A stretch of 50,832 nt of DNA, the filler included, from Jimgerdemannia flammicorona (taxonomy: Eukaryota), in assembly GCA_003990765.1 (NCBI GenBank). It is 2 parts of 2 records of this genome, joined end to end, with 100 filler letters (N's around TTAATTAATTAA, not from the genome) between each part and the next. Parts side by side here need not be neighbours in the genome. Positions count along the whole stretch, not along the records: positions 25,474 to 50,832 come from RBNJ01000841.1; 1 more part is not named here. One strand, given 5' to 3'. The notes below the pieces were generated by a model that had not been told where the DNA came from, ran no database searches, and worked only from the letters and a program-made list of their open reading frames with translations. The translations under genes and the position numbers were made by a program. How positions within the stretch are numbered: position 1 is the stretch's first letter; each line of letters opens with the position of its first letter. Positions 11,601 through 40,387 of this stretch are shown one piece after another.

Positions 11601-14486
11601 GGGCCTTCCTATAGATATTTATTAAAGGCAATTGAAGGAGAATATCAGAGTTTACTAAGGGGAGACTGGTCAGATAGTGGAAAGAAGAAAGAGAAGGAGA
11701 GTGTATTGGGCCTCTAGCAGGCTTACTCAGCTACAGAGAGCTTAGGCTAAATTGCTGAGCTTGGAAGGAGTTGAGGATTAGAGGTTGATGTATGCTAAAC
11801 TGGAGATAGTAGAGCTGCAGACTATCTTGAGGGAGGAGGAGAAGATATGTGTAAAGGAGATTATTGCTTGGTTGTGATAGTAGGGGTTGAAAGTGAGAGA
11901 GAGACTCTCTAGATATCTTTTGCAGCTGCTTTGGGCCAGACAGATGAAGTAGAGATGAGATGGTATAGTTGATTCAGTGAGTATGGTTATTCATAGTACC
12001 CAGCAGATTCTTTGCTCTCTTAAGGAATGATGGAGTGATTTATAGAGTGAGAAGATTGGAGGGTACCAGTGCTAAGAACATTGAGCTTGCTCTAGAGAAC
12101 TAGAACCTACCTCTAGTATATAGTATTGAATGGCTGTCCTGGCTAGTTTAGGAGGAGGAGATATAGTAGATTATTTCTACTATAAAATTAGACATAACCC
12201 TAGGTGAGGACAGACTCTTTTGGGATTTCTGGAAGCAAATGGTAGGAGTTTCTGGAATTCTTAGAGAAATGATAGCACTGTGTAATTATGTTCTCTTGAT
12301 AGAGAGGTGGGTTGGTAAACAGGATTTTAGATTGGTGATCTTACTCTATAAGAATAAGAGTGATAGAGAGAATTAGAGAAACTGCCAATCATACTTTTAG
12401 ATATGGATAGGAAGTTAGTTACCAAGATAATAGTGGTATGCCTCAGTATATAGCCCAATAGATATTGAGAGAAGAGCAGTGTGGCTTTGTTGGGGGATGC
12501 CTCATTTGAGATAGTACTATATGGGTATATAGTATCATAGAAGAGGTAAGGACAAGTGATCTGGATAGAAGACTAGTTTTTTTGGATCAAGAAAAGGTCT
12601 ATGATTAGGTGAGATATATCTGGCTGAATAAAGTACTTAACAGAATTAGAGTTCTGGATCTCTATAGTTAGCTTACTGGAAGGTAGTAAGGCAGCTATCT
12701 TGTATAATAGTTATAGGGGTAGGATATTCACCCTAGGAAGAGGGATTTCTTAAGGAGATCTATTGTCATCCATTCTCTATGCTCTCTTGTTGAAATCTCT
12801 AATGGATAGGATTAGGTAGAGGGTGGTAGAGTTGTCAGTATTTGGAGTTATTTGGAAGATGGGTATCTTTGTAGATAACATGGTAGTGGGACTTGAGTCT
12901 GTGGCTGATATAGTAGTATTGAGGGAGATAGTGGAGTAGTATGAGATATATTCTAATATAAGGCAGAAGTAGTATAAGTGCAAAATAATAATGCTTAAGA
13001 ATGAGATAGTGAGAGAGAACATCATTGGAACAATTATTCTGGCTAGCAAGGCTGTGTAGTATCTTGGGGTTTATTTGTTGGTATATGGGTCTATTATAAC
13101 TAAGGTCTGATGAGAGAGCAGGGTCTCAAGTTAGGGTGAGGCACTTTGGAGCTAGGGAGAGCACTATATCTCTCTAACTAGCAAAGTGGCAATTCTGAAT
13201 ATTTATTGGCTACTAAAGATATAGTATTTGGCCTACTATCTGGATTTCTCTTCTTAGGTGGTGAGGTAGCTATTGAAGTTGGCTAAGGATTGGATCTGGG
13301 TGGGACACAGAAGTCAAATTGGCTGGAGCATTCTTTTACTGCTAGTAAACTATGGCAGTCTTAGTCTAGTAGATTTCCCAAGGAAGCTCTATTGCTTGAG
13401 GGCTTGGTGGCTGAGAAGGGCAGTAGAACTGCAAGGAAGTGGCTGGGTCTCTTTGATGCAGAAGGTGTAAGAGTTGAGGGTTTTCTCATGGGGTTCTATA
13501 GAGGATCTTCTGTCTCTTATGGGTCTGCAGGACAGTGGGAGATTGTACTTCAAAGGATTTTGATAGAAGATTGCAGTAGGAGTACATTACATTAGGCTGC
13601 AGTGATAGGGTGATAAGGGAGAGATATATTGGGGGCTGGTAATGTGATACTGGGATAGGCTCCTATTTGGGAACTCTCTCTTTATGTAATTTGATATTAG
13701 GAATAAGGTAAAGTATCAGAGAGAGATGGGGCTGGACATGTGGCCAGTAGGTTGATAGGATATTGGTATAGGTGAGGAGTGAGACTGAGATGGAGTTTGA
13801 TTCTAGAGTACTGAGGTCAAGTAGTAACTTCCCCCAAGTTCTGGATGATATAGTGATATATATATACTAAGGAGAAATGTCATGCTGAACTTCCACTTTG
13901 GACATTTGATTGAGGGTAGAGAGTTTGAGTGTGAGGAGTATCTTAATGTAGAGTAGAAAGAGAGTTTTGTACAGTTGTCTAAATATTGGTTGAGAGAGTA
14001 TAAGGTACTTGGTGATTTCTAGATTACTGTAGAGAAGTACCTGGGGGTCTATAGAAGGAGAGATGAGGTGAGAGACCATTGGGAGGATCTGAAGGAGTAT
14101 CTTGTAGGAGAAGTAAGAAATGAGTAGATTACATATAACTAGATCTTAGCAATTTGGGTAGAGCTGGCTAGGCATTGGCTCTTTATATTTGAGGAAGAAT
14201 AGTAGTTGAGTATTATAAAGAAGCTGTTAAAGTGAGATATGCTAATAGAGGATCTCTTAACTAGCTGATGGATGGGCTAGGGACCTCAGAGGGACTGTTA
14301 CCACCAGCTTATTGAGGGAATCTGTATGCAGAGTAGAGGTCAAATGGAGGTGATTGAGGGCCAAGTAGTCTTTAAATGAGTAGAAGTTAGTGGAGTCTCT
14401 CCTAGAGGGATTGGATAGTAGGCTGGATCAGATATTATAATTAATATAATATAGAATATAGTAATAAAGTAAGTAATCTAAGTAAC

Positions 14487-14521
<35 letters not shown>
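8661..14521 (+). mobile_element. Full-length degenerate L1/Tx1-like LINE (family A, copy 1)
   Basis: ORF1 from ATG 8741 (..IKGVPIV..IAKYGEVIDIGF..). ORF2 from ~10775 has an APE endonuclease (IFSLxVNxL, GNFN, RID, SDH) and RT (xPGEDxL, LLYKNK, FLDQEKxYD, GDxLSxILY, FVDN from FADD, YLG). Poly(A) at 14491-14521; degenerate ~19-bp TSD at 8642-8660 / 14526-14544. Many TAA/TAG/TGA stops arise from transitions. Confidence 0.92.
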
Positions 14522-14525
<4 letters not shown>

Positions 14526-15039
14526 TATATCTCAGATATAGCCAGAAATACTAAAAACTGTAAAAAAGTATAGAAAGTATCAATCTGATACTGATAAAGA
14601 GACAACTCATCACTATTGCCTCTCTCTCACTATACTCTTATAGGTATAGCAAATCAACCTGAGATAGAGAAGATAGAATAAGGGGAAAGGGACTTGGAAG
14701 ATTGTCTATCAATCTTGTAACTAGTATGGTAGTGGATAAAGAACTATTAAAGCCCATTACTCTATCAATTGTAGAATTACTAAATAGAAAATTGGATTAA
14801 TTAGCTCTTTACTTGAGAGTCCATACTGAGTTCCACATAGTTATAGTGGGGATACTTGGAACTCTGCATAATGTCCCTGAGACTATGCTGCATAGTATCA
14901 CTAAGTCTCTTGGTTCCTATTTTGCATCACTTAGTAATATACTTATACCATATGGTACCAGACTCTTGAGTATCCCATAATGAATCATAGGTTATACTTA
15001 TGGTATAAAAAGAGTAGAGTTGGATGATTGGTAATATCT

Positions 15040-18000
15040 TCTTTCTGATATATCTCATATTATATAAATACATATTACCTACTTTTATACCATTCTTTAG
15101 AGAATTGTCTTAAGACTATGTCCTTAATTCAGAGTTTTACAGAGTGTACTAGGCAGAATAGCCTTAGTGTATTCAGCTGACAGTATGTGGAGGGGGGTCA
15201 GGGAGCAGGATTGGGAATGCTGAGCACTTTGTTGAGAGAAAGAAGAGTTGGCAGTGGTAGAGGAGGAGATATGGTGTGGTCAGGGAGGAATCAGATGAGC
15301 TTTGCTGAGAAGGTCAAGTAGAGAAATCTGGCAGCTAGACTGGATAGGTGGCTGTAGGGTGGCAAGGAGAAGGCTACTACTAGAGGGCTGAGAGGGGCTC
15401 TCTTGGAGGTACCTAGTGGAAGAGCTAGTAGTATAGTGGCTGGAGGTATAACTGCTGATGGGGTGGTGACTGGTGATCTGGAAAAAAATCCAGATATAAC
15501 TACTAATAGTAGAGTTAGAAAGATGGGGCTGGGAAGGATGAGAGACCTGGCAGATAGTGTAATGGGTCTGGTGGTGGCCCTATTACTCAAGAAGTCAATC
15601 TTGGAGTTTGTAGTTACTTGTGCTTCTGGGGCTTAGCAGTAATGGCAAAAATAGTCTTGGAGCTAATTGTTAAGCAGATAGATGGTATAGTATCTGTGAA
15701 GTTCCTGCAGGGTTTGGAAGGGATAGAGGGGAGGCTGGACCATTGAAGGAAGTACTGAAGACTGGGCTAACTATTGGAGAGGTATGTGTCCCAATGATAC
15801 AATACTTGAGGTGGGACCCCAGAGTAGTATAACTTCTGATGAAAGAAGTACCTATAGTGACTACTATAGAGATGAGAAGAAGAGTTGAGAAGGTCATAGC
15901 CAAGTATGAGGAGGTGGTTGATATTGGGTTTCAGGTCTGAGAAGGTATCTCTTTTAGAACAGAGGATATTGATGTCCAGATTTGATTGGCTGAGAGGGAG
16001 GCTACCAGGAAGACTCATGATTAGCTATTGGTAATAGTGTAGAGGGCCTTCATATATAAGGTAATAAGGGTAAAGAGGAGTGAGAAGGAGGAGGAGAATT
16101 TATTAGAGATACTGAAGGAGTTGAGTAGTATAGTAGAGCAGAGAGTGAAGACTTGGAAGATGTTTGTAGAATCAACATATCTAGAAGAAGTGGATGGGAA
16201 GTGAGTCTATATGAATAAGAGACTATGGAAGAGGTCCTAAGGATATAAGAAGCAGAGAGAGCTACTGGTGAAACTGGAGAGGAAGGTGAAGAGAGATGCT
16301 GGTGGTATTGAGGATACTGAGGGAGCCAAAGTGAGTATTTGGGCCAGTAAAGATGGGGGGAATATAGAGAAGAATCCAGAAGAGACTGGGAAGATACCTA
16401 GTAAAGACCTATATGTAGATGGTATATTTGAAGTCTGGGAGAATACTCCTCCTCTTATTAGAAGGAGTCCAGTCTCAAGAGTCTAGATAGCAGAGAATGT
16501 GTTTATATGAGGTGCCCAGCAAGTACACTTTGAAGTTCCTGAGATGGTAAAATAGAGATAAGTAGTGGTGGCTAGTAAGGATGAGCTGGTAGATGTCTCT
16601 GAGGAGGAGTGAGATGAGACTGTAAGTATAGGGGCCAATACCTCAATGCTGGAAGAGGGGAGACCAGTGACTCCAGATAGAAAGAAGGTGAAAAACCTAC
16701 AGTAGATATATCAGATAATAAATAACTTAATAGCTGAGGAGTTGGGAGACATAAATCTAAGAGTACTAAGTGATGATCAATAGATATGAATATTACATAG
16801 AGATGGAGTAGTAGAGGCCCTGAAGGTGGAGGTACTTATAGTTTTTTTGAAAAAGGAAGAATATAAGATTAATAAGGTGAGGGAGGTGGAGCTGGCAGTT
16901 GTTACTGGGGAGCAGGCTGCTCTCTGGTAGACAGAGAGATATATATTGCAGCTCTAGTAGAAAGCCTACTTAGAGTATTATGAGGACTTTGAGGAAAAGG
17001 AGAATGGAGAGCTAGCTAAACTTCTGGTGGGATTGAAGGCTAAGAGGGTGGAAGAGGAGAAGGTGGCTATTGAATGTAATTCAGACTTAGCATAGGAGGA
17101 GATGAATGTGGAGCTATAGAGAATATACTTGACTTTTAACATTACTTCCTATAAACAATACAACCAATATTTTTTCTTTAAATATGAATGGGCTATAGGG
17201 ATCAGTTCAACATCAGAATATTTTTACTTGGCTGAAGAGATTAGAGACTGATCTTTTTCTTTTGCTATGAAGATGACTTGGATAGACTAGATTGAATAAA
17301 GGAATGGAGAGGTATAGCAGTTTAGAGGAATAAGGTTGGGATTTTGGCCTAGAGAGGTAAAGAGAAGATATGAGATATAAGAAGCTGGGGTGACTGACTA
17401 GTTTGGGGTAAGTGGAGTCAACCAGATTGGGAGCTAGTGACAGTGAATTTCTACTACTATCTTGCTATATAGAGTGAGTAAGTAGAGTGAGTAAAGAGAC
17501 TCTGGAAGAGTGGAGCCCTTATAGAGGCTAGAGTGGACATTTTTGAAGAGGACTTTAATATAATCAAGGATATGCTAGTAGATAGGACTAACAGAGAGTG
17601 GGAGACTAGAGGTTAGAGCAGAAGTCTGGAGATATGAGAGGAAGTAGAAAAGCTGAGTTCTCTAGTAGATACTAGTAGGGGGCTCTGGAGAGATAAGAGG
17701 GTTTACATACACTGAGTGAATAATCTGGAGATATAGATTGACTGGGTACTGATGATAGACTGCTGAAGTTTGGATGTTTGGAAGTTGCTGGAGGCTGAGT
17801 GGTGTTTATGATCTGATTATTGAGAACTATTGAGACAGGGTCATTTCAGGAAAAGCAAGAATAGGCCTAGATATTGGTACCTTAACTTCTCTCTACTAGT
17901 GAAGGGAGAGCTGTGAGACAGATGAGCTATAGATATTCAGTAGAAGATTGGCAGTTGGATTAGTGAGAGCCTTCCTATAGATACTTGTTGGGGACAATTG

Positions 18001-20886
18001 AAGGAGAATGCTAGAGTTTACTAAGGGGAGGCTGGTTAGGTAGAGAGAAGATGAAGGAGGGAGAGGGTACATTGGGCCTCTAGCAGACTTGCTCAGCTGT
18101 AAGATACTTGGGCTAAATTATTGAGCTCAGAAGAGATTGAGAGTTGGAGGTTGATGCATGCCAAACTGGAGATAGTAGAGCTATAAACTGTCTTGCAGGA
18201 AGAAGAGAAGCTGTGTATGAGGGGGATGGCTATTTGGTTGAGATAGCAGGGATTGGAAGAGAAAGAGAGGCTCTCTTAGTATCTTTCTCAGCTACTTCAA
18301 GCCAGATGAGCAAAGCAGAGGTGGGATGGTATAGTTGATTCAGTGGATATAGTTGTTCATAGTATCTAGCAGATCCTTAACTCTCTTAAGAAATATTAGA
18401 GTAATTTATGAAGTGAGAAGGTTGGGGGTACCAGTGCTGAGAATATTGAGCTTACTCTAGATAACTAGAGTCCTCTCTCAGTGAATAGTATTGAGCAGCT
18501 ATCCTGGCCAGTTCAGGAGAAGGAGATTTAGCAGGTCATTTCTACTATAAAGTTAGATATGGCTCTAGGTAAGAATGGGCTCTCTTGGGATTTCTGAAAG
18601 TGAATGGTAGAAGTCTCTGGAGTTCTTAAAGAAATAGTGGTACTGTGTGATCATATTCTCTTAATAGAGAGGTGGGTTGGTAAGCAGGATTTTGACTTGG
18701 TGACCTTACTCTATAAGAATAAGAGTGATAGAGAGGATTGGAGGAACTGAAGGTTGATAATGCTCCTGGATATAGATAGGAAGTTGGTTATTAAGATGAT
18801 AGTAGTATATCTACAGCAGATGGCCCAACAGATACTAGGTGAGAAATAGTATAACTTTATTGAGAGATATTTTATTTGAGATAGTACTGTATGAGTGTAT
18901 GATATCATTAAAGGGGTACAGACAAGTAGTCTGAATGAGAGGCTAGTTTTTTTAGATCAAGAAAAGATCTATAATTAAGTGAGGTATGTCTGACTGGGTA
19001 AGGTGTTTGACAGGATTGGGGTCCCATAACAATTCTGGATCTCAATAGTTAGCTTACTAGAAGAGAGTAAGAAAGCTATCTTATATAATAGTCATAGGGG
19101 TGTGATATTTTCCCTAGGAAGAGGGGTCACTCAAGAAGATTCATTATCACCCATCCTCTATACTCTCTTGTTGGAATACCTAATAGATAAGATAAGACAG
19201 AGGGTGGTAAGATTGTCTATATTCAGAGTTGTTTGAAAGATGGGTGTCTTTGCTGATAACATGGTGGTGGGACTAGACTTGGTGGCTGATATGGTAGTAT
19301 TGAGAGAGATAGTAGAGTGATATGAGACATATTTGGGTATAAGGCTAAATTGGTATAAGTATGAGACAATAGTACTTGAGAATAGGGTGGTAGAAGAGAA
19401 TATTATTGGAATAATTGTCCTGGCTGATGAGACTGTGTAGTATCTTGGAGTTTATCTATTAGTATATAGATCTGTTCTAACCAGAGCCTAGTAGGAGAGT
19501 AGGGTCTCAAGTTAGGGTGAGGCACTTTGGAGCTAAGAAGGGCACCACATCTTCCTGGCTAGCAGAGTAGCAATTCTGAATATCTATTAGCTATCAAATA
19601 TTTGGTACTTGGTCTACCATCTAGATTTCCCTTCTTGTGTAGTAAGATGGCTATTGAAGATAGTGAAGGATTTAATCTGAGTAGAGCATCAAAGTCAAAT
19701 TGGCTAGAGTACTTTTTTACTACTAGTAAACTATAACAGTCTTAGTCTAGTAGATTTCCTAAGAAAGCTTCATTGTTTGAGGACCTGGTGGCTGAGAAGA
19801 GTGGTAGAACTATAAGGGAATAGCCAAATTTCTTTAATGCAGAAGATGTGAGAGATGAGAATTTCTCCAAGGAGTTCTATGAGAGATCTTCTATCACTGG
19901 TAAGTCTACAGAATAGTGAGAGACTGTACTTTAAAGAATTCTAATAAGAGATTGCTGTGGAAGTATATCACATTGGGCTACAGTGGTAGAGTGATAAGGA
20001 GGAGGTACATTGGGGGCTGGCAATGTGATACTAAGATAGACTCTTGCTTGGGGGCTTCTCTCTTGTTGAATTTGATATTAGAGATAGGGTTAAGTATCAG
20101 AGGGAGATGGGGTTGGACATATGACTGATGGGTTGACAGAGTATTAGTATTAGTGAGAAGTAGAACTGAGATAGAGTCTGGTCCTGGAGTACAGAGGTCA
20201 AGCAGTAGCTTTCCCTAAGTTCTGAATAGTATAGTAGTATATGCTAAGGAGGAATATTATACTGAACTTCTGCTCTAGATATTTGATTGAGAGTAAAGAA
20301 TTTGAGCATGAGGAGTGCCTTAATGTAGAGCAAGAAAGGGGTTTTATATAGTTGTCTAAATATTGGTTAGAGGAGTGTGAGGTACTTGATAGTTTCTAAA
20401 TTATAGTAGGAGAGTACCTGGGGGTCCATAGAAGGGGGGATACAGTGAGGGGCCATTGGGAGGATTTGAAGGAACATCTCATAGGGAGAGTAAAAAATGA
20501 GTAGATTATGTATAGCTGGGTCTTGGTAATTTGGGTGGGGCTGGTTGGACATTGGCACTTTGTATTTGAGGGCAGACAGTGATTGAGCTTTGCAGAGAGA
20601 TTGTTAAGGTGGGATAGGCTGATGGAGGATCTCTTGATTGGCTGGTGGGTGGGTTGGGGGCCTCAGGGTGGCTGTCACTGCTGGCTTATTGAGAGGATCT
20701 GCATGCAGAGCAGGAGTCAAATGGAGGTGATTGAGGGCTGAGTGGTCTTCAAACAAGTAGGAGTGGATGGGTTCCTCTCAGAGGGATTGGGTAGTGGGTT
20801 AGGTCAGATATTGTAATTATATAACATAGAATGTAGTAATAAAGCATGGAGTCCAAGTGACTATAAAAAAAAAAAAAAAAAAAAAA
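15040..20886 (+). mobile_element. Full-length degenerate L1/Tx1-like LINE (family A, copy 2)
   Basis: Collinear with 8661-14521 over ~5.8 kb. RT core FADN at ~19250, QEDSLSPILY at ~19130; poly(A) at 20865-20886. Confidence 0.92.
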
Positions 20887-21863
20887 GGGGGTAGGACGAT
20901 TGGGGTTACAAGATTGACGTCATCACTCTCTGCATTTCTCTCTCTGCAGCCTCAAAAATCTGCTCGGGCACTTCCACCAGTCCTTCCACCTCTCTGATGA
21001 CCCTCCGAATTGCATGATAAATGTGATACTACATAAGTCGATTGTTTTATTCATTTGAAGGTAACATGGAGAGAGTGGTGGAGTGCGATTAGAGGCACCA
21101 GGTTGCAGGCTCCTGTTCCAGGTTTTGAAGCAAAGCAGGAACTAGTTCCATATATTGTACATCTTGTCGTGTCGGAGGGTCTGTCTGGTCGGGGACAACG
21201 GAGAACTACGGTATTACCGTTTCATATATTACTAATAAAAAAATAATGGGTGTAATGTCTGCCGCCGATATCGAGTCTATCTTGGCTAAATATCGAAACG
21301 TGATCCCGAAGGTCATGTTAAATGACTTTATGGAATTGAGCAGAATGCACGGGATTTTTGGCATCTTGTTCATGGAGTATCATATATGGAACCAATGGAG
21401 AATAAGAAAGAAATGATGCAGGCGCTCATCAAACGGCACCCGTAGAAGCAGAAGTTGTAAATTGTAGTTGCATGCACTTTTGAATGAAAATATCCCGTTT
21501 GCCGTGACAATTTACTCGACTACGAACTCGTGGTAAGCTCCTTAACGTCTGCGACTGATATATCATCACTTCAAACATCCCGTGAACGGCATCCTGCCTT
21601 TCCGCCATCCCGAAGACGCGTGCGACAACACCGCCAGCACAACCTTGCAATGCCGTTGCCAACCATAACACGCTTTGCCCAAAACTAGAGTCCTTTGACA
21701 TTGTAGAATGATATTCAACACCAACTGGGGTAAAGCAGAAAAATGCGCCTGATCGCAACCATCCTACGAAAAAGAGAAAAAAAATCAACTCTTTCATTGC
21801 CAATCCTACGTAGCCACATATAGTTGCGGATAATATACATTTTCATTTCCACGCCCAGTACCT

Positions 21864-25373: not shown

Positions 25374-25473
25374 NNNNNNNNNNNNNNNNNNNNNNNNNNN
25401 NNNNNNNNNNNNNNNNNTTAATTAATTAANNNNNNNNNNNNNNNNNNNNNNNNNNNNNNNNNNNNNNNNNNNN
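25374..25473. other. Artificial scaffold/contig linker (44 N + TTAATTAATTAA + 44 N)
   Basis: Exactly 100 bp and symmetric, with a six-frame stop core at 25418-25429. Confidence 0.95.
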
Positions 25474-27004
25474 AAAAAAAAAGAGGTTATTTTGCTTTAT
25501 TTTATTTTTCAGAAAGTAAAAAAAACTGATATAATATAAAATTGGTAGATTTTTTAGATCAATAGTAGTAATATTGATAAGATAAGCAGAATCTTAAGGC
25601 TAAATTTATCTAGACTCAATTCTATATCCCAAGTCTAGTAGATTTCAATTTTAAGATTTGATCTTCTAGAGAGCTAGAAAATAATATTCTATATGCAGAA
25701 TTAAGAAAAAGTAGGATGTCAGTATTCTATTAAGTTTTTAGAAAAGGAATATTAAAATCAATTTTGAACTATAACATTTTTTAAAATCTTCTACTTTATC
25801 AGCTAGTATTTTAAATTTATATCACAATTATATTATTCTAGATACTAAATATAAGAGAAGTTATTCTAGTAATTTAGAGAGAGATATTGAGAGATCAAGC
25901 AAGCTAAGTTTTAACAGATATTTATAAGAAGATATTTAAAGTTCAGAGAGCTGAATTGTATATAAAGCTTGAGCTGAAACTAGGTCTTATATATTAGTCA
26001 GCTATACTTTAATTTATATTAGAGGAATATATTGCTATATTATATTTCTCAACAATTTTAAATTAAAAATTAGATAGGATAAATAGGAGAAATACAGAAT
26101 AGCTATTATGGAGATAACTTTACTTCTCTTCAATACTTCTTACTAGATATAGTGACAAATTTCTCTACTTTATTTAATTTTTAATCAATTTAACACTCTT
26201 TACTATCTATCTCTAAAGAGAATTTTTAGAGGTATCCTAATATTCTCAGTATTCTTAACTTCAGTATTAGCATTCTCTTTAGTTTGATATAGATAGTGGT
26301 CAGATGAATTAAGTCAATCTAGAGTATATTTTTAACTTAGAGGATTTTAGTTTGAGCAGAATATGGCAAAAGTTAGTAATATATTTTTTGAGCTCTCTCA
26401 CTCATATTGATCAAGATATGATATCTGTTTTACTCTATATAGTCAAATATAAAAAATAGTATACTCCAAAATCTGAAAGTCTATTTTATAATTTGGCTTA
26501 TAGTATTAAAGTTTCTCTAAAGTTTAATATAATAATAGTATTTTATTCAAATCAACCATATGGCTTATTAGTTATAAGAGATGAGAAAGTTTTAAATAGT
26601 CTATTATTGAATATTTGTTACAAAAAAATCTATATATCTAATAGTAGTTTTTTATATTATATCATAAGTTTAGACATTTGACAGAAGTTATATATATATA
26701 ACTCTATTTAGAAGAGTAATGTTTTTTATCAGGAGGATTTTTTTTTAAAAAAAAAATTGCCTTTTTTGGCAGACTTACTGGCTAATCTATACTGAGTGAC
26801 TAGAGATTCAGTTTATTATATAAAGAATTTCTATAAATTCTAGCATATTGTAAAATAAATTTAAGCTAGTTCAAATTTATTATATAATAAATTCAAATTA
26901 GTTCAAATTTATCATATGATGAATTCAAACTAACTTGAATCAATTATATATATAATTGGTAAATTTAAATTAAGTTCAAATTTTCCTACTCAATAAGAGT
27001 ACTA
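25474..27004. mobile_element. Right-hand part of a hAT-related element carrying dioxygenase copy 2 (left end not seen before the gap)
   Basis: Ends ...caataagagtacta at 27004, the same TAGT(A/G)CTC TIR as 27392, 43042 and the MITE. Subterminal atcatatgatgaat at ~26911 also occurs at ~27436 and ~42983. Confidence 0.65.
25540..26650 (+). pseudogene. Decayed TET/JBP-like Fe(II) dioxygenase, copy 2
   Basis: Manual translation gives NYIILD..REVILVI, ILSIL and SSLTHIDQDMISVLLYI..LFYNLAYSIKV..NIIIVFYSNQP(Y from H)G. HxD at 26403-26411; the distal His codon would read TAT at 26559-26561. It aligns without gaps to the C-terminal domain of the minus-strand gene at 40390-40700. Confidence 0.65.
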
Positions 27005-27499
27005 GCTACTATATACTTAATAATTAAATATATAAAAGCTCTCAGTAGATTTTTTTTTTTTAGTCAATAACTAAAACTTATATTAAATAAAAAGAGATTG
27101 AAAATAATAATAAAGTAATTCTAAAATTCTGAATAAGTATATATTATCAAAGATTAGATATCTAAAGAATATTTTATATAATAGATTACTTTTTAAGTTT
27201 TTTTTAATAATCCTTAGATATATTTCTTAGTAAATTTCTTAGTAAATATATCTATATATTAATAATTTCCTTCTACCTCTTATATTGACTAATTTTTTTA
27301 GCAATTATTAATTAATTAATTTTTTTTTCTATAAGTACTAAATTCTTTTATTAATAAATCTATAATAAATATATAGCTCTTATACTATACTTAGTACTCC
27401 AAATGAGTCAATTTGAATCAAATATAGATTTAATTCATCATATGATGATTTGATCTAAATCTCAAATCTGAAGCTATCTGAATTAACTTAAATTAATCT

Positions 27500-27752
27500 G
27501 AATCATCTAATCCAAATTATCCCATCCAAATTATCCATCTGAATTACCCCATCTGAACCACCCCATCTGAACCACTTAATCTAAATTACTCAATCCAAAT
27601 CACTTAATCTAAATTACTCAATTCAAATCACTCAATCTAAATCACTTAATCTGAATTATCTAATTTGAATCCTTCAATTTGAAACCTCATCTAAATTCTT
27701 CAACTAAATCCTTCAATTCAAATCTTCTAATCCAAATCCTCTAATCTGAATT
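27500..27752. repeat. ~14-bp subterminal tandem array of the hAT left end (approx. ATC(C/T)(G/A)AATCAC(C/T)(C/T)A)
   Basis: About 17-18 degenerate units such as atctgaaccacccc and atccaaatcactta. The variation fits an ancestral ATCCGAA core. Confidence 0.8.
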
Positions 27753-28324
27753 CTTTACATAACTCATATACCAGATATATCTATATATACAATATATATA
27801 CATATAAAATGTATACATATAAATATGTAAATATATATATCAACAGATCAGTCTTCAATAGTTTACAGTACTGATGATACTTCAAGTCAAATATCTCTAA
27901 TAGTTCCACACCTTCTATACAATCCTTGCTCTGAAATCTGACAATATTGTACTAAGATAGGAGATAATATTATTTGTAACTATTACAGGTAAAAAATTAA
28001 AAATAATAATAATAAGATATATCTATGATATAACTGACACTTTGTTTAACATATATATGATACTGTTTCATCTATCTCTTTTATTAACTATCTATAACAT
28101 GCCACATGTCCTCATACAATATCAGTAGCCCCATTCTACCTCAATCTCAACCCACCTTCACACTCACTCAGCCTTGCACCTTTAGGGTGTGAGTTGTGAT
28201 TTTACTGCCCAAGTAACTAGATCCTTCTACTCAGCCTGTCCCACTCAAGAGTGGGTATAGGTTGTGAGCCCCAATCACCTCAAGTACTTGGCATCTAGTA
28301 TACCTGACCTATTCTTATTAGTGC

Positions 28325-28733
28325 CTCCTGTCTTGCCTGTCTTGCTCATCTTGCCCATCTTGTCCAGCTTGCCCATCTTGCCCATCTTGTCTGCCTGTAT
28401 TGCCCATATTGTCTGTATTACCTATATTGCTATCTTGCCATCTTGTCCATCTTACCCATCTTGCCTGTCTTGCCTATCTTGCCTGTCTTGTCCACCTGTA
28501 TTACCTGTGTTGCTTATATTGCCCATGTTGTCTATATTGTCTGTATTGCCCATATTGCCTGTATTGCCTGTTTTATCTGTTTTATCCATCTTGCCCATGT
28601 TGCCTGTCTTACTGTCTGCCTATCTTACCCATCTTGTCCATCTTGCTGTCTTGCCATCTTGCCTGTCTTGCCCATCTTGCCCACCTGTATTGCCTGTGTT
28701 GCCCATGTTGCCCATGTTGTCTGTATTGCCCAT
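28325..28733. repeat. 9-bp minisatellite (ttgcccatc/ttgcctgtc/ttgcccatg), left part
   Basis: Directly visible tandem units that continue after the LTR element. Confidence 0.95.
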
Positions 28734-29511
28734 TATAAGTACACAACCTCCAAGCTACCAAAATTGCATGTCATCCTCAGAACCAATTTGGAAACTACAT
28801 ACAAGACTACAAAACAAGTTACTGAAGAGATCATCTGGTTATACAAAATACATCAGCAAACATGAGAACCTACTGCCAAGACACAAGAATACCAGAAGAA
28901 GTACTATAACCATAAGACCAACTCTGAATCTCTATAACTAGTTTGGTATACTATACTATTATAAAAGAAAACTGAAAGTACCAAACTCAAACCAAGACAA
29001 GAAGAACCCTATCTCATCCATCAAGAGTTCATAAACTATACTTATCAAACTCAAGACCAAGATATACCATAACTATATAAGACCTCATTACTTAGCAGAA
29101 GCAAAATACATTTGAATAACTCTGTTCACTCTATCTGTATCATCTCCATTGGAGAATGACAGATGCTTCATCTGAACTTAAGAAAGCTGACATTGTCAAA
29201 ACCAATCTCAAGCCATCTACATGACAGATATTACTACTAGAAATTGTCTCGAATTATAGAAAATATCATTTCCAAGAGGTTTGAACCTCCAGCTGTAACA
29301 TTGGGAGCCCTCATCCTAGACAAGAATGGTCAGTTCTTACAAATGTACTAGCAGGCCAAAAAAAAAAGAGAACCAAGATCTGTTATCCTTATATGACTAC
29401 TGCCACCAAGGACAGCCTTAATCTTGTAAGAGATAGAAGTGATGATACCTTAAAACTGATGATGTCAGAAGTCAGAAAACTGCTCAGACTTTGCCAGAGA
29501 TGATGTCATCA

Positions 29512-30724
29512 CACCCCTTTCTCTGCTACCTTACTGGTCACAATAGTTTAGTAGGCAACCTTCCAAGTCTACTTTCTACAATTATTACCCTCTCTACTTT
29601 GGATTAGTTTGCTGTACCTATTGCAGGGCAGTGGGAGGGAGGCAATAGTGATAAGTTGCTCCTTTATCAGTGTCAGATCAGTGTCTTCTCCACTTTTTTG
29701 CAGTTTCTGGTGCCTTCAGCTGCATCTGGAGTGCATTTGTTTGGTACAGTGCCTTCTTCCTTTTGCTGTCACCAACAAGGTGCTGTCTTGGTATATCTTG
29801 GGCTATGTAGGGAGTCGGCTGACCTTGGGCATCAAGTGCTCAGTATAGGTTATATGTAGGTCCTCAGTGCCTATGATAGGGCCCTCTGGCTTTGACGAGC
29901 TTCCCGGCGAGTGTGGTTCTGGTATAGGTGATTGCTTTTCAGGTATTGTTGGGATGGGAGGAGAGATGACCATCACAGATAGGAAGAAGAGTGATAATGG
30001 TGAACCAGTGGGGTACCAGGCTAGGGGTGGTCATTGGGGCTGGCACAGACAATATTTTGGTGGGGCCTTTTGATTGGCTGGTGGGAGGTGGAGTGGTGCA
30101 GGGACCGGTATCCTGGCTATACCCAACTGGAACCAAGAGCTGATGCGGCAACACAATTGAGACCTGCAGGCTTGAGGAGTGGGGCCTTCCTCATATAGCT
30201 ATATCTGACTGGAACTGGGAGCTGATATGGTAATGTAATTGAGGCCTGCAGGCTCAGAGAGTGGGAGTGGGGTCTTTTCTGGCCCTAGCCCATATATAAG
30301 TCCTTTGTGGAAGGTTCTGCATATAAGTTCTTTACTCACCCACTTTGAATTCACTTTGCTCTCTACTGGTTAGTTGGGGAATTTTTCTTTTGCCTCAGGC
30401 TTTCTTTTGAGGTTTGGGGGGCTATTCTTTATTCAGTTCTGGTGCTGCTAGATCTGACACATAGGTGTGCTCTCATATATAAATGATGATCCAGTCCTGG
30501 TGAGCAGACAAGTCTAGTCTATGTTGTAGGGGTTAATGTAGCTGGTATTTGACAGGCATAGCTGGAGCAGTAAGACTGCTAGATAGTTTAATAGCCTAGA
30601 TTAATGAGGGAATATTGTTCAGTGGGTGGTGGGGGAGGGTTTTGGCCTATATAGTCTAGGTTTTCTTCCAATAAAAATCTGTAGGACTTGAGTCTATTAA
30701 AAAAAAAAAAAAAAAAAAAAAAAA
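29512..30724 (+). mobile_element. Family B non-autonomous retroposon, copy 2, inserted in the 5' LTR
   Basis: Starts cacccctttctctgctacc; poly(A) at 30699-30724; TSD gatgatgtcatca (29499-29511 / 30728-30740). Absent from the 3' LTR. Confidence 0.9.
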
Positions 30725-33489
30725 GATGATGATGTCATCAATAGTGATGTCATCAAAGACTAACCAGATAGCATCTAAATCTATAAATAGCTTAGCAGTC
30801 ATAGTATAGTTAGATTAGCCTTATACAACATGACTGTGAACTGACTCAGTAGTCAGATAATCTCTTAATATATCAGATCACCCTTATACTATATAACTGC
30901 ATTCTAACTCAGTAAGGTACTAAGTGTTACATCCATATTCAGCATAGTCCAGATAGCCCCTCACTAGTATAAATACCCCTTCCTCCAGACCTCAGAATCT
31001 CAGACTTGAATACTTGAACAATTTAAATATAACTTCTGAGCACTTCTCCACAATATCCCTTTATACAACTACTCTTAGTATAATAATATCATGAATAGTA
31101 AATAAACCTATTTGATAACCCACAAACTATTCTTAAGTAAATCCACTCCCCATTAGGTCTCACTTCTAACCCCATTATGAAATTTCCTAATTGAGTATTG
31201 TCTGCAGCAATATGCTAATTCAACTAAGCTGGTCTTAGTTTCTTGAACTTTCTGAAATATAGAAAATCCCAAATATTCAGAACTAGTCCAAAAAAGGACT
31301 TTGGTTGAGACATCAATCCGATCTTGAAATCAATAAGCATAGAGGATATACTCCATATGAAATTAATCTTGACCTTAAGAAAATGGTCTTCCAGAATATC
31401 CAGAACTTCCAGAAAACTCTTCCAAAACTATGTAATGGTTACTCTAAAAAGTAACTCTTTTACAACTTGGTAGCAGTGATTTACAATCCAATTCTGCTTC
31501 AAGATGCTTCCTCACCCCACTACAAACCCTTTTGAGAATTCCTATAAGTTGGTATAAAGCCCAACCTCTGAACTGGAATTATTCTGAACCATCTGACAAT
31601 CTGGAGAGAATTGAACCTGACATATAAGGATAATTTGACCTCCACACCTGCAACAAGTGGGACAAACTTCATTCAAAGAAAGAAATACTCTAGTTAAATC
31701 AGCAAATAGGTAAAACCCTATTCACTGAACTCCTTGCTCTACACCCAGCAAGTCAAGATGAAGAAGGTCTTATAGAAGCCTTCTTTACTCTTCTTAATAA
31801 GAGTTTTGTCAGCTCCACAAATCTGAGCAACCTAGGACAACCAGCAGCAGTCTTTCTAGTCTTAGTTTCTCATAAAGCCCAAGCCTCTGTAGTCAAGTGG
31901 CTCAACTCTACTGACTTTCACAATACCAGGACCAAGATCGCATTATACTACCATTTCCAGAACAGCAAGGCCTGCCATATTCTTAAAGAAGTAAGAGAAA
32001 CCCTTTATCAACTACCCAACCCTGAACCAGAAGCAGGCCCTGCTACAGCTCTACCTGAATCTGAAACTAATACTGAACCAGAACTTGACTTTGAATTAAG
32101 TCCATCCAAAATCAGATATATATGTAACTGATTCTGTCTACTTCAATACTAAGCAAATCCAACTATACAGAGACCAAACTGAAGAGAAGGAGGAGTATCT
32201 CAGTGAATTTGATCCTGAATACACCACCAAAGGAGATGCACCTCCATCAGGACAGAACACACCTACACTGCAACAAATAGCTATCTATAAAGCTCTTACT
32301 CCAGACCCACAACTACTACTCCAGCAACTTATACAAATCCAAAGAACTCCACCATACTCTGCACCAGTACCTCAAGTAGTACCAGTAACACCACTACCAG
32401 CAGTCCAACCACCTCTAGTAAACAACATGGTGAACCAATAGATTCTAGACCTCACAGCCCAGGTAGCAATAATAGCAGCAACCATTACTACCTTAGCCAA
32501 ATAGACCTGACCTACCAAAAATCTGAGTCTACCTATCTTCAATGGTACTGTACAAGAAGTCCAAAGCTTTATTAGTATAGTTGATACCAACTTTGAAGCC
32601 AATCAATGGACTAATGAGCAAGTTGCTGACCATCTTCTGATAAACAATCAAGACCACACTCTGGAACAACTCTTTGCTACCACTACAGCCTATGTCTGCT
32701 GAGTTGTTACATTCTTTCAAGGACCTACTGAAGAATGGTGGTGAACCCTTTCTGAAAAACCCCTCATATAGGACACCTGACCTGCAGTAGTCACTCAGAA
32801 TATAGCAAATAATGCCCCAGGATATGGAGCCCATCCTGCAGTCCCTGGACTCAAACAACTCATGATTGCTCAATACTATAGTGAAACTATAATTGCTAAA
32901 TCTTGAGTGAAACTCTGCAATCTCAAATTTAATATATATGGCAAAGAAGAATTCAAAACCTTCTATACAAAACTCAAGTTACTCCTGAATACTGTTGGCC
33001 TAGGATATATTACCAATGATGAAGCACAAAACAGTATAAGAGCAGACCATTTATTTGATGCCCTGCCTGAATGGCTTACTAGAAAAAACTGAGAACAAGG
33101 CTACCCAGTTGGTTGTAATTACCAATAATAGTATCTAGCAAGAATCAAGACTATGGTTAAGCAAATCCTAACAGCTGGACCAATTCTGCCTCAAAGACAA
33201 TTCAACAACACGGAAAAAACTTAGATCAAGAAAGAAGAACCTAAGTATAAAGCATCCTAAGCTCCCTCCACATCCACCTCTTGGATATCCAGAAATCATA
33301 AACTCATCCAGCCAAGTACCTTCAAGAAACTCACTGAAGGTAAAAGAAATGAACTTTGAAGAAGCAGAGCATGCTTCTATTGTCAAAAGACAGGACACAT
33401 GACCAGTACCTGCCTCAACTAAAAACCCCAAACAGCAACATGAGCAACTGTTACTACTCTGCACCACCTCAATAACCTGACTACCAGAA

Positions 33490-33901
33490 CACTGGACTTT
33501 GTCAAGTTAAGGCAAACTGCTAAGGCCCCAACCAAAGGAAGTCAAAAAGCAGCTAGATATGACCTGTATGCAGCTGAAGAAGCTACAGTTTTCAACTGAG
33601 AAGTTAAGCAAGTCTACACAGGAATCAGTATCCAAATCCCTAAAGAACATATTGGAAGAATATACTGTCACAGCAGTCTAGCATTGAAAGAACTCTCAGT
33701 AGAAGGAGGAGTCATTGATGAAGATTATACAGGTGAAATTATTGTTCTTATCCGAAACCACAGTTGGATACCCTTTAAGATCCCCATTGGTTTCTGTATT
33801 GCCCAGATCCTATTCAAAAAAATTGAGTCAACTCTGATAGTCAAGGAAGTCCCTGAACTACTGCCCACCATCTGAGGAGCTAAAGGATTTGGCTCATCAA
33901 A
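33490..33901 (+). pseudogene. Retrotransposon-borne trimeric dUTPase domain
   Basis: VKLRQTAKAPTKGSQKAA(R from G)YDL, TGISIQIP, GRIYCHSSLA, GGVIDEDYTGEI, IAQI and *GAKGFGSS correspond to dUTPase motifs I-V. Confidence 0.93.
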
Positions 33902-36359
33902 TAAGGCCCCAGCCCAACCTACCATGAACAAAGAAGAATAATTCTATAAGAAAATTGAAGACAGATATGTACCAAGTGGCTGATGTTCCCATGGTATTGG
34001 AATGCACTCTTCCCAAATGATTGATGATTGCTTCTTTTGTGTCAATGAACTGGCTCAAAGAAGAACCAACAGAAGGAAAGCCTCAATAACTGAAATAACC
34101 ACCATTGGATCAGACAAACTGCTTATACTTCAAGCTTTTGTCAACTGAGTACCTGTTAAGATTATGATAGACAGTGGTACCTCAGACAACTTCATCAATG
34201 AAGAAACAGCCAACAGACTCAAGGTCTTCATCTCTCCAGTATAACAAACTCAAGCAGTTGCTACAGCTGATGGAACCTCACATGTTATTAGCAAGAAAGT
34301 CCACAATCTGCTCTTCCAAATTAGTGACTACTGAGTACATATTACCCTCCAAATTGTACCACTTCCTGATAATGAAATTATCCTTGGAACTCCATGGTTG
34401 AAACAAGAGAACCCTATGATCAATTGGGTAAACCATTCTCTGACCATCAAAAAAGGATGCCACAACTTCAAACTATAAGGTGAAAAGGATCCACTCAGTT
34501 CTACTGACCCTGGACCAAAGATCACCCACATCAATAAGCTACAGCTTAAGAAATTGGCCAAGAAATGTCCTCTCTTTGCCATCTCCATCCATCTATCCAA
34601 AGGAGAACCTGAGAACTCTGAAGAAGACTTTTCCAAAGTTGATAGCCATGTCAGACCACTACTCCAGAAAGTCTGAGATATATTTCTGAACTGAACCACA
34701 GAACCACCTGCACCTGTCATTATTAATAACTAAGAAGAGTATGAAGTTGAACAAATCCTCAACAAACATAGCCACAAGAATCATCCAAATGGTACAATAA
34801 CACTAGAATAAATTAGAAGACCCCAATGAGGATGTCGAAAGCTAAGAAGGAGAGAGTTATAAGCACATAACCTCTAAGTTATCAAAATTGCATGTCATCC
34901 TCAGAACTAATTTAGAAACCACATACAAGACTACAAAACAAGTTACTGAAGAGATCATCTGGTTACACAAAATATGCCAGCAAATACGAGAACCTACTGC
35001 CAAGATACAAGAATACCAGAAGAAGTACTACAACCATAAGACTGACTCTGAACCTCTATAACTAGTTTGGTATACTGTACTATTACAAAAGGAAACTGAA
35101 AGTACCAAACTCAAACCAAGATAAGAAGGACCCTATCTCATCCATCAAGAGTTCATGAACTGCACTTATCAAACTCAAGACCAAGATATACCATGACTAT
35201 ATAAGACCTCATTACTTAGTAAAAGCAAAACACATTTGAATAACTCTGTTCACTCTATCTATATTACCTCTATTGGAGAATGATGGATGCTTCATCTGAA
35301 CTCAAGAAAGCTGACATTATTGAAACCAATCTCAAGCCATCCATATGATAGATATTACTACTAGAAATTGTCTCAGATTACAGAAAATATCATTTCTAAG
35401 AGGTTTGAACCCCCAGCTATAACATTGGAATCCCTTGCCCTAGACAAGGATGGCCAGTTCTTACAAATGCACCAGCAGACCAAAAAAAAAAGAGAACCAA
35501 GACCTGTTATCCTTGTATGACCACCACCACCAAGAACAGTCTTAATCTTATAAGAGATAGAAGTGACGATATCTTGAAACTGATGATGTCAGAAGTCAGA
35601 AAACTGCTCAGACTTTGCCAGAGATGATGTCATCAATAGTGATGTCATTAAAGACTAACCAGACAGCATCCAAATCTATAAATAGCTTAGCAGTCATAGT
35701 ATAGTTAGATTAGTCTTGTATAATGTAACTGTGAACTGACTCAGTAGTCAGACAATCTCTTGATATATCAGATCACTCTTGTACTATATGACTGCATTCT
35801 GACTCAGCAAGGCACTAAGTGCTACATCCATATTCAGCATAGTCCAGATAGCCCCTCATTAGTATAAATACCCCCTCTTCCAGACCTCAGAATCTCAGAC
35901 TTGAATACTTGAACAATCTGAACACAACTCCTGAGTACTTCTCCACAATATCCCTTTACACAACTACTCCTAGTATAGCAATATTATGAATAGCAAATAA
36001 ATCTATTTAATAACCCACAAACCACTCTTAAGTAAATCCACTCTCCATTAGGTCCTACTCCTAACCCCATCACGAAATTTTCTAATTAGGTATTATCTGT
36101 AGTGATATGCCAATTCAACTGAGCTGGTCTTAGTTTCTTGAACTTTCTGAAATATGGAAAATTCTGAATATCCAGAACTAGTCCAAAAAAGGACTTTGGT
36201 TGAGACATCAACCTGATCTTGAAATTAATAAGTATAGAGGATGTACTCCATACAAAATTGATCTTGACCTTAAGAAAACAGTCTTCTAGAATATCCAGAA
36301 CTTCCAGAAAACCCTTTCAGAACTATGTAACAGTTACTCTAAAAAGTAACCCTCTTACA

Positions 36360-36940
36360 CTCATGTTGCCCATATTGCCTACTCATGTTGCCCATGTTGC
36401 CTGTATTCTGTATTGCCAATGTTACCTGTTTTGTCCATTTTGCCCATTTTACCTATCTTGTCCATGTTACCTGTCTTGCCATCTGCCCATCTTGCCCATA
36501 TCACCCATCTTGCCATCTTATCCATCTTGCCTATCTTGCCCATCTTACCCATCTTGCCTGTCTTATCTATCTTGACCATATTATCTATCTTGTCATCTTG
36601 CTATCTTATCTGTCTTACCCATGTTGCCTATCTTGTCATCTTGCTATCTTGTCTGTCTTGTCTGTCTTGCCTGTCTTGCCCATCTTACCCATCTTACCTG
36701 TCTTGCCTATCTTACCTATCTTACCTATCTTGCCTGCCCATGTTACCTATGTTCTCTATGTTGTCTATGTTGTCTATTTTGCCTATTTTACCTATGTCAC
36801 CTGTCTTGCCATCTATCCATCTTACCTATATCACCCATCTTACTATCTTGCCATCTTATCCATCTTGCCCATCTTACCTGTCTTGTCCACCTGTGTTGCC
36901 CATGTTGCCCATATTGCCCATGTTGCTCATATTGCCCATC
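36360..36940. repeat. 9-bp minisatellite, right part
   Basis: Same units as 28325-28733; the array is split by the Ty3 insertion (TSD cccat/ctcat). Confidence 0.95.
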
Positions 36941-38373
36941 TGGATCATCACCCCTCATAGCAGAGGAAGTTGTTAGTGAGCATGGATCCACTCAACCTAG
37001 TATATGTGTCTGCTTGCTTGCTGTTTGTCATTGCCTTAGTACTTTTCTCCAATAAATAACTTGAAAGTGTGTTGTAAAAGTGTGTATAACATAAATTGTA
37101 GCAGAGAAAGGTACTGTTTCATCTATCTCTATAAACTGTATAGCCAGAAGTTCAAAATGCTTAGTAGTTTGACTTCAAATATATATTGATACATAAAAGA
37201 CAAATACTCTAATAAAATCAAAAAGAATACAGAGATAAATAAAATTAATATCCAAGCTATGGTGAGTATATTTATCTGATTGCCTGACCATTTCTATACC
37301 AATAACCCTATTTAATCAAAAATATTTAACCATACTCTTTAGCAGAATTTCAAAATCAGCTCATTTACTTAATTATATATACAGACCAGCTATTCACAAT
37401 CATCGATAGTGATCAATTATATAGCATCTTTGGTTTTCTTAAGCATGATTTATATTTGCTAAGTACTAATACTATTTGCAAAGATATCTTAGAGGTCTAT
37501 AGGAAGGAGTATAATAATCTCTACCAGATACTTCAGATAAAATAAGAGCAGCACTATGACCTTTGCAAGCTGAATTATATATATATATTTATAAAAGAGC
37601 TCACCACATTCAATAAGTATAATTTGGCAGACAAAATTTCATTTACAATCAACATATGGACATTCTCTAATGTAATTTCATTTCTAAGTATTACTGGTCA
37701 TTAGATTGATCTCAATTGATAGCTTAAATCTCTCACCCTTGACTTCATCAAACTTGCTGGCACTCATTTTGGAGAAAACATTGCAGATGCTTTTATTAGT
37801 TATATCTGAGAGCTTGGGATCACAACTAAGATAAAAAAGGGGGGCTTACTATCAGGTTGGTATTTTGAAAGAGGTTCTAAAACAAACAGATTTTATTGAT
37901 TATTTATTTTTACATAAATTTGTCAACTGAATATTTCAAGTACAGATTTTGACCATTATGACAGACAATGCCACAAACAACTTAACATTTTTCCAAGTTT
38001 TAGCAGATAGTCTCAAATAGAAAAATATGACCTTTAGTGTAGAAAGCTACTATATACAATATCAGGCCCATATACTGAATCTCACTATTCAGGACTATCT
38101 TATGTATATAGACAAAACATCTGAGAGAAGAGGGGCTCTGAGTATAGTTTCCAAGCTATACAAACTGGTTGTATCAGTCCAATCATCTCTACAATGACAA
38201 GACAAATTCACTATACAGTATAGAATAATTAGTTTAGCCTTAAAAGAACTAATATTAGATATCTGTATACATTGGAACTTAATATTTACAATGATCCAGC
38301 ATGTATTGGAGTTTGCTGTAGTATACATTCTTTTTTTTAGTCAGCTGAAGTAACTTGTTTTGGATGATGGAGA

Positions 38374-38407
<34 letters not shown>

Positions 38408-39629
38408 CAAAAAAAGCCAATAGATTTAATGGTTGCTGCTGATAAGGAAATGCAAAGTAAGGCTATAAGTAAAAGTGAGTGGAATGTACTTAGGAATATT
38501 ATCAGAGTTTTGAAAGTAAGTAGTAATTGCTCTAGCTCTATACTTATTTTATCTATCTCTATATAATATAATACCTCACTACACATAACTACCAGTGTTT
38601 TAATAATTGTACAAAGGATATAGTAAAAAAAAATGACTCTAACAATAAGCTCTACAATACCAGTATACAATCTTTTGATTGACTGGCTAGAGAATAAGCT
38701 TGAGGACAGACTGGAGGGTAGTAGTGATTTATAGTTAAGCCTAGATCAGAGAGATGCCATAGAGGTTGCTCTAAGCAAACTCAGAAAATACTACTCTAAA
38801 ACAGATGCTGCTGTATACTCAATCAGTATAAGTATATCAGTATATAGCTATTGTCTCTTTCAAAATAAAGAAACCCCTACAAAACTCACTCTCTTTCTTC
38901 AAACAGTACTAGACCTATGCTTAAAGCTATAATACCATAAATATCAGAGCTGAGAGCAGTACTATATTGAGGAAACTAAGTGGGCCATAATCAAAACATA
39001 TGTATCAGAAAAACTATATACTACTGCAAAGTTCTGGCTGAAGTCCAGACAAATATGCTAAGAGATCTCTCTTGTTCTATATTTACTTCAGCAGAAAGAG
39101 GAAGAGGGAGCAATTAGTGGAAGAGCTGCTGTCAATAGACAAACTCACCATTTACCTTACCAGTGACCATGTGATCCTGCTGGAGGGTGCAGAGGTGCTC
39201 AACTAGTAGAAAGTAAGTTGTTAGGCAGGCAGTTGATTATGTTGGACCAATTTAATCCACCAATCTAACTACTATTCTAACTACTGCTCTACCCACTAGG
39301 GCATATAGCTGCAGTTATGTCAAATGAATTTCCCCAATCTGTATAGTATGGCTTAGGACTACTTGACAATTTCTGCCACCAGTACTCTCATTGAGCAGAT
39401 GTTCTCAAGTAGGGTAGATCTCATTGCCCCTAAGAGGTGTGTACTGAATATTAAGACAATCTAGGTATATATGTATCTGAAATCTTAGTGGGGTATAGAC
39501 TGCTAAAATTTGGCAGGTTCTAGAGTTTACAAATAAGTTAATTAGCCTTGTGGATTATTTAATAATTTAAAATAAAAAGGAAAAAAAAAAACTGAGGGCT
39601 TGGTCTGGAGTTTGTGGCCTGAATAGGAC

Positions 39630-40125: not shown

Positions 40126-40387
40126 GTCTACTACAAATTCAGACTCTGTCACTAGTTCAGATCCCACAGACACTCTGGTCCTACACTGTAGTACCACACT
40201 GGTGGCACTATAAGAGTAGGACCAAAAAATCAGTAGGGCCCAGTATAACAGCTATACTAGTGCTACAGAAAAGAGACACCTGGCTGCCAGCCCAACTCCC
40301 CCAAAAAAAGACTGTCCAATCTATACAAAATAACTGCTGAACCCTTATAAAAGATTGCCTAACCCTTACAAAAACTGCTCCACCCAC

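Follow-up and report, generated by a model that had tools for sequence, protein, structure and literature searches.

The stretch of DNA analysed here (the window; 50,832 nt in two joined parts from Jimgerdemannia flammicorona, with positions counted along the whole) is eukaryotic and fungus-like in character and holds two decayed copies of a gene for a predicted Tet-like Fe(II)/2-oxoglutarate (2OG) dioxygenase, both associated with termini of one hAT transposon family (Table 1). Copy 1 is situated within a hAT transposon (element 1), and copy 2, the subject of this analysis, lies on the opposite strand, either within an end of that hAT terminal family or, at the least, next to one. Copy 2 is probably the remnant of a second gene of the Tet-like family that diverged separately, inside the right end of a hAT element. 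The AT-rich contig that carries it begins at 25474, leaving the left part of this element unassembled.

The core of copy 2 keeps to one reading frame and corresponds to about residues 10–133 of P0001, a metagenomic relative. Copy 2 is a pseudogene, because the conserved core contains an in-frame stop and an in-frame gap of ~17 codons, a tyrosine stands in the column of the distal metal-binding histidine, and the remaining sequence has a G+C content of 23% with zero CpG. The tyrosine codon (TAT) is a single C>T step from CAT. Both copies are without any CpG and both are dead, and no third copy of the gene occurs in the window.

Table 1. Coordinates of the features discussed, along the whole window (HMM, hidden Markov model; TSD, target-site duplication)
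Feature	Position	Strand	Basis
Artificial join: 44 N, linker TTAATTAATTAA, 44 N	25374–25473		Artificial join
Upstream blocks of the earlier note, possible N-terminal part of the gene	25836–26048	+	Best upstream local alignment
Copy 2, core of a decayed, putative Tet-like 2OG-Fe(II) dioxygenase pseudogene	26334–26660	+	HMM, alignment A2, codon test, translation
H-I-D codons, HxD metal-binding motif kept	26403–26411	+	Columns H48 and D50, invariant in alignment A2
In-frame TAG stop within the conserved core	26457–26459	+	Translations
TAT (Tyr) at the distal metal-binding His column	26559–26561	+	Codon test, H138->Y(TAT)
Subterminal palindrome TTATCATATGATGA, lying 82 bp inside the terminus	26909–26922		Motif count
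Right terminus of the copy 2 element, GAGTACTA (= TAGTACTC on the minus strand)	26997–27004	−	Pattern search
Flank GCTACTAT, candidate half of an 8-bp TSD	27005–27012		Partner not found
hAT element 1, termini TAGTACTC...GAGTACTA	27392–43042	+	Exact 8-bp TSD
hAT C-terminal dimerisation domain of the decayed element 1 transposase	39321–39482	+	PF05699 (Dimer_Tnp_hAT), 24.2 bits vs cut-off 21.4
Copy 1, with stops and one frameshift, convergent with the transposase	40369–40768	−	phmmer, HMM

Homology of copy 2

An earlier note on this DNA had paired two peptide strings of copy 2, both in one frame (THIDQDMISVLLYI, 26400–26441; YNLAYSIKV...PYG, 26487–26564; plus strand), with two strings of copy 1 (40591–40632 and 40489–40545; minus strand). 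All of these lie where the note placed them, and the gapless alignment of the two copies is present (55 columns, 18 identities, BLOSUM62 score 78). When subjected to shuffling, the same alignment proved to be the best of the 36 frame pairs (6 × 6, best local score = 82), but its significance was marginal, with a score of 82 also attained in 10 whole-region and 5 local dinucleotide shuffles (150 trials of each kind). Neither blastn nor tblastx nor a transition-tolerant DNA alignment matched the gene regions of the two copies; these searches recovered subterminal motifs only. Both outcomes count against a second homolog, and the direct match between the two copies, taken alone, is marginal.

Outside relatives were sought with phmmer, run exhaustively on a 161-residue query from copy 1 in which stops were entered as X (E ≤ 0.001). 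This search returned four proteins. Two of these, P0001 (136 aa, 64% identity to copy 1, E = 2e-34) and P0002 (134 aa, 38% identity, E = 1e-13), are singletons whose metagenome contigs measure 823 and 1009 bp, respectively, and the other two (P0003 and P0004) are repeat proteins that were discarded as noise. An HMM constructed from P0001 and P0002 alone, applied with all filters off to a six-frame translation of the whole window (E ≤ 1000), produced exactly three hits. Two were on copy 1 (126.5 and 21.6 bits) in two frames, and copy 1 is assigned a frameshift because of the 21.6-bit hit in the second frame; the third was copy 2 (26388–26588, plus strand, 18.6 bits, i-E = 4.1e-7). For the 1531-bp region alone, the HMM score was 24.3 bits compared to a maximum of 3.8 bits in dinucleotide shuffles, with 0 of 2000 reaching the observed value. 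A codon test considered the 50 alignment columns with one and the same residue in P0001 and P0002. Copy 2 keeps that residue in 14 of these columns and 16 more are derivable by C>T/G>A changes only, for a total of 30 compared to a mean of 7.9 (maximum, 17) when the codons of copy 2 were permuted (n = 5000, none attaining 30). Alignment A2 carries the homology out to 26340–26660.

Because the HMM identifies copy 2, no shuffle reaches its score, and no permutation attains its codon count, the homology of copy 2 to the P0001/P0002 family and to copy 1 is judged from these comparisons to be real. The initial reading had been a chance similarity of two AT-rich translations with no second homolog present, which draws on the shuffled pairwise scores and on the failure of tblastx and blastn to report the pair. 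That reading was overturned by an HMM that is independent of the window and that hits the copy 2 region and otherwise copy 1 alone, as well as by the shuffles and codon permutations, and it retains next to no probability. Two hypermutated copies that lack a convincing match to each other can still be tied together via intact relatives.

The supported homology (26334–26660) is considerably shorter than the 25540–27004 that had been given as the extent of the homolog. The upstream blocks (NYIILD/REVILVI and others), also proposed as homologous, correspond to the best upstream local alignment with copy 1 (to 41671–41426, score = 58), and as 46 of 300 shuffles reach this score, the match is not above chance and the proposal is not confirmed. 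A word-indexed search with the 85-aa open reading frame (ORF) of copy 1 that holds these blocks found no database relative (one candidate, none significant). The blocks are colinear with the proven homology, which is mildly favourable to them, and they may possibly represent the N-terminal part of the gene.

Divergence and decay of the two copies

Across 222 aligned bases, copy 1 and copy 2 have 91 identities, 60 transitions, and 71 transversions. The distribution by codon position (identities, 29/41/21; transversions, 23/13/35) is that of divergence under protein-level constraint. As deamination makes no transversions, and given the codon-position pattern, the copies split as working genes well before their decay. 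With C>T/G>A reversal allowed, copy 1 is at most 83% identical to P0001, while copy 2 is at most 48% identical to P0001 and 50% to P0002, and P0001 and P0002 have 53% identity to each other. On these values copy 2 seems to form a third lineage within the family, and the transversions and the low identity show that copy 2 is truly diverged, in line with its description in the earlier note as a diverged homolog.

A recent duplication of copy 1, with a divergence that is only apparent and due to C-to-T hypermutation, would fit the AT-rich, CpG-free state of both copies and the 39 sites with T/A in copy 2 and C/G in copy 1 (21 sites have the reverse). However, the 71 transversions are not a product of cytosine deamination, the differences track codon position, and the transition-tolerant DNA alignment finds no match between the genes. 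A recent duplicate is very unlikely.

The base composition of the window is divided between genic blocks (G+C, ~50%; CpG observed/expected, ~1.0) and repeat blocks (7001–21000 and 25474–44850; G+C, 15–46%; CpG observed/expected, 0.00–0.27), with the CpG ratio at 0.27 in 7001–9000 and at 0.00–0.06 in each repeat block from 9 kb onward. In most of the repeat blocks TpA/ApT is ~1, and every repeat block except a 387-bp spacer has a (CpA+TpG)/(ApC+GpT) of at least 0.9. Set beside the values expected of these indices under repeat-induced point mutation (RIP), the two results indicate CpG-targeted hypermutation, unlike the CpA-type RIP of Neurospora.

Several other features of the window accompany this division. 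Host genes with normal CpG occur on both sides of the repeat island (4260–4676 and 48696–50621), consisting of an ankyrin-repeat ORF and proteasome subunit exons, on both strands. A 12-kb portion (9001–21000) has a very strong plus-strand purine skew (GC skew, 0.26–0.50) and almost no CpG, and its minus strand has long stop-free frames that are seemingly composition-driven. The DNA on either side of the artificial join, genic on the left and an AT-rich contig on the right, is not necessarily contiguous in the genome.

hAT termini and the setting of copy 2

Four termini of the TAGTACTC family were identified in the window, at 7636 (+), 27392 (+), 26997–27004 (−), and 43035–43042 (−). The pattern TAGTACTY has 15 occurrences in the window compared to 5.1 expected, and the palindrome T(C/T)ATCATATGATGA has four matches compared to 0.46 expected, three of which are positioned 43, 48, and 82 bp inside TAGTACTC termini. 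Element 1 possesses the features of the hAT superfamily, namely a transposase, short terminal inverted repeats and an 8-bp TSD (ACTATACT, 8/8, at 27384–27391 and 43043–43050). Its length (15.65 kb) is inflated from about 8 kb by a nested long terminal repeat (LTR) retroelement (about 28.74–36.4 kb). This retroelement has a dUTPase domain (33600–33872, plus strand) and splits a 9-bp tandem array (28313–28740 and 36413–36970). Tandem units of ~100 bp (GGTTGGCAGAGAGAGTACACAAAATTTGCAGCC-like) were seen by eye at 39600–40130, between the transposase remnant and copy 1.

The terminus and palindromic motif that the earlier note had placed downstream of copy 2 are confirmed (Table 1), as are its distance of ~350 bp from the end of the gene (344 bp as measured, from a gene end near 26660) and the orientation of the gene toward the terminus. 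This layout differs from that of element 1, in which copy 1 and the transposase are convergent. The terminus next to copy 2 is grouped with element 1 because both have the same 8-bp TAGTACTC and the palindromic subterminal motif.

The placement of copy 2 within a complete element has several results against it. No credible left terminus is present in 25474–27004, where 24 sites with two mismatches include none with a matching TSD flank; the same interval has neither a Pfam match to a transposase nor a TSD partner; and the two copies have no DNA similarity outside the subterminal motif. The candidate left termini in this interval were rejected; TAGTATTT at 25804, for example, has a flank (TTATCAGC) that mismatches GCTACTAT. 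The left-type terminus at 7636, considered as the partner of 27004, was also rejected, as it is flanked by GACTAGCT, not GCTACTAT, and has CpG-normal genes in between.

The missing left terminus, TSD partner and transposase would suit a real homolog that was the cargo of another transposon, or an older relic, beside which a hAT end (solo or short non-autonomous) had landed. The region is a nest of insertions, and TET/JBP genes have been reported inside 11 fungal DNA transposon lineages, including hAT (Kojima 2025, Biology 14:1741, PMC12730594), both of which accord with such an origin. Against it, the AT-rich DNA is unbroken over the 344 bp between gene and terminus, the other copy in the window sits within a TSD-flanked element of the same terminus, and no ends of another transposon are visible around copy 2. 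An unrelated hAT end beside the gene is considered unlikely, and copy 2 is read as the cargo of its own hAT element. As the left end and the TSD partner are absent from the contig, it is the position of the gene that points to this cargo status.

The earlier note had further proposed that the dioxygenase was an old, diversified, recurrent cargo of this hAT clade. The diverged relative and the shared terminus both stand, and the proposal is plausible; with two copies only, the co-descent that we infer for the gene and the hAT lineage is inseparable from repeated capture or exchange. The exchange of TET/JBP genes between fungal transposon families is described as frequent (Kojima 2025) and, by analogy, may weigh on a reading of co-descent.

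Two further observations concern the remaining termini. A third left-type TAGTACTC terminus occurs at 7636–7780 with AATTGAAT-like subterminal repeats, and for the element starting there neither a partner end nor a TSD was found, nor any Tet-like gene. The 387-bp spacer (27005–27391; G+C, 15%) separates two hAT ends that face away from each other, and, together with the spacer, the two ends make up an imperfect inverted repeat whose centre is near 27180–27190.

Family identity and transposon-borne TET/JBP genes

The H and D of the HxD motif do not vary among the four sequences (P0001, P0002, copy 1, and copy 2; alignment A2), while the distal histidine is present in the first three and replaced by tyrosine in copy 2; the 2-His-1-carboxylate triad (HxD/E...H) is therefore a property of the family that has been lost from the present copy 2. 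With regard to the basic residue that binds the C5 carboxylate of 2OG after the distal histidine in this superfamily, P0001 and P0002 each have an arginine 21 residues past that histidine. In the ESM Atlas, P0001 and P0002 are each nearest to two unnamed Basidiomycota clusters (0.93–0.95), followed by a cluster of PF20515 ‘Tet-like 2OG-Fe(II) oxygenase’ (0.91 for P0001 and 0.88 for P0002), with 72% (P0001) and 97% (P0002) of the members of the PF20515 clusters carrying that domain. A further cluster, of which 11% of members carry PF12851 (Tet_JBP), scores 0.88 for P0001 and 0.91 for P0002. The Atlas model of P0001 (pLDDT, 0.69) has structural neighbours at template modelling (TM) scores by query of 0.54–0.63, and every neighbour assigned to a named family is some kind of 2OG-Fe(II) oxygenase. 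Such Atlas matches are leads and no proof, according to the warning of the tool itself. The HxD...H motif and the Atlas leads suggest that the family is a Tet-like 2OG-Fe(II) dioxygenase.

A number of results weigh against this assignment. The family otherwise consists of two database members with ~135 residues known. No Pfam or NCBIfam model matched P0001, P0002 or the read-through frames of either copy (E ≤ 10 or E ≤ 1), and the TET/JBP models PF12851 and PF20515 were among those without a match. A sequence search of the PDB with profiles A2 and A3 returned only noise (a designed repeat protein and coatomer WD repeats), and AlphaFold2 models derived from A2 and A3 had pLDDT values of 34.7 and 37.2, too low to be of use. 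By eye, the column of the arginine in the R-x-G-x-S-x-Q motif of the Puccinia proteins (Table S1 of Kojima 2025) seems to hold alanine or threonine in P0002 and P0001. Further relatives were not recovered by a search with P0001 for longer members (0 of 455 candidates), by a search with profile A3 for near relatives (P0001 and P0002 alone among 91 candidates), or by pattern matching to metagenome contigs, where none of 104 matches was confirmed.

A real transposon-linked family that is some other small double-stranded beta-helix oxygenase, or that has a role other than TET/JBP-type oxidation of 5-methylcytosine (5mC), would be consistent with the lack of an HMM match to PF12851, PF20515, or other models and with the apparent absence of the R-x-G-x-S-x-Q arginine. 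The structural neighbours likewise cover several 2OG families (Oxy_3, Oxy_5, and prolyl hydroxylases) at modest TM scores. On the other side, the named Atlas feature hits of P0001 and P0002 are Basidiomycota Tet-like or Tet_JBP clusters, and the order of motifs (L-P, ~35–45 residues, P-x-H-x-D, G-G, T-x-V-L-F, H-(G/S)-(T/V)) resembles, by eye, rows of Table S1 (Kojima 2025). One of the TET/JBP types described in the same paper was recognisable solely by a structure-based search. A non-TET enzyme is rather unlikely, and the Tet-like assignment is retained as the predicted identity of the family.

The proteins share the HxD...H triad and the Atlas PF20515 clusters with CcTET of Coprinopsis cinerea and PF20515 (2OG-FeII_Oxy_6), and differ from these in having no HMM match, ~135 known residues and an activity that is predicted only. 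Among the transposons of Basidiomycota, the KDZ (Kyakuja-Dileera-Zisupton) and Plavaka groups reportedly carry TET/JBP genes (Iyer et al. 2014). Those groups reportedly resemble the present case in lineage-specific expansions of Tet-like genes tied to DNA transposons and in a proposed role against cytosine methylation; they differ in that the domain matched here is a hAT dimerisation domain and neither KDZ nor CACTA-like. The C-terminal T-x-V-L-F ... H-(S/G)-(V/T) of the present proteins resembles, by eye, a Kyakuja (AG-type) row of Table S1 (Kojima 2025).

The general idea of Tet-like cargo in fungal transposons, including hAT, is already published (Kojima 2025). That paper describes 20 hAT7 families with TET/JBP genes from six Puccinia species and defines the TET/JBP types PU, AG, and PE. 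The TET-carrying hAT7 of Puccinia are the closest in likeness as described there: a hAT transposon with a TET/JBP-like gene beside the transposase, several diverged families per genome, variable gene order and orientation, and hosts with C-to-T hypermutation at repeat CG sites. There are also differences. The TSD of hAT7 is 7 bp compared to the 8 bp (ACTATACT) of element 1, for which the two possible 7-bp readings, ACTATAC and CTATACT, are unlike each other; seven hAT7 consensus sequences from Table S1 start with CAACGGTGGG or CAGCGATGGG rather than TAGTACTC; the motifs HTDNN, DLHGT, THTD, and SGYVG of the present family are absent from the supplement text searched; and hAT7 coding regions are mostly intact, whereas both copies in the window are dead. 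A limited literature search found no report of the TAGTACTC terminus or of this dioxygenase sub-family, which is no proof of absence.

The living ancestor of these elements would have been a hAT transposon that encoded a transposase together with an Fe(II)/2OG dioxygenase. The dioxygenase would have oxidised 5mC on the transposon DNA, an activity that we infer by analogy, and this oxidation would have countered both methylation-based silencing and the resulting C-to-T decay. Such a role is suggested here because the same role, countering methylation and CG-site hypermutation, has been proposed for the TET/JBP genes of fungal transposons (Kojima 2025). It is possible, though doubtful, that copy 1, copy 2, P0001, and P0002 constitute a further unclassified Tet-like type, too distant from PU, AG, and PE for recognition by Pfam, that was long carried by a canonical hAT lineage with an 8-bp TSD (terminus TAGTACTC) distinct from hAT7 and that shifted its position and orientation within the element. 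If true, this would widen the known range of anti-methylation cargo.

Compared to the published description (Kojima 2025), the points of difference are the 8-bp TSD, the different terminus, a sub-family unrecognised by Pfam, and the complete decay of both copies. The additions are modest, consisting of a TSD and terminus unlike those of hAT7 and a sub-family otherwise known from two metagenomic fragments. Transposons with their own methylcytosine oxidase are a clear counter-defence against a genome defence. With both copies destroyed and every CpG gone, the locus records an instance of the host process winning.

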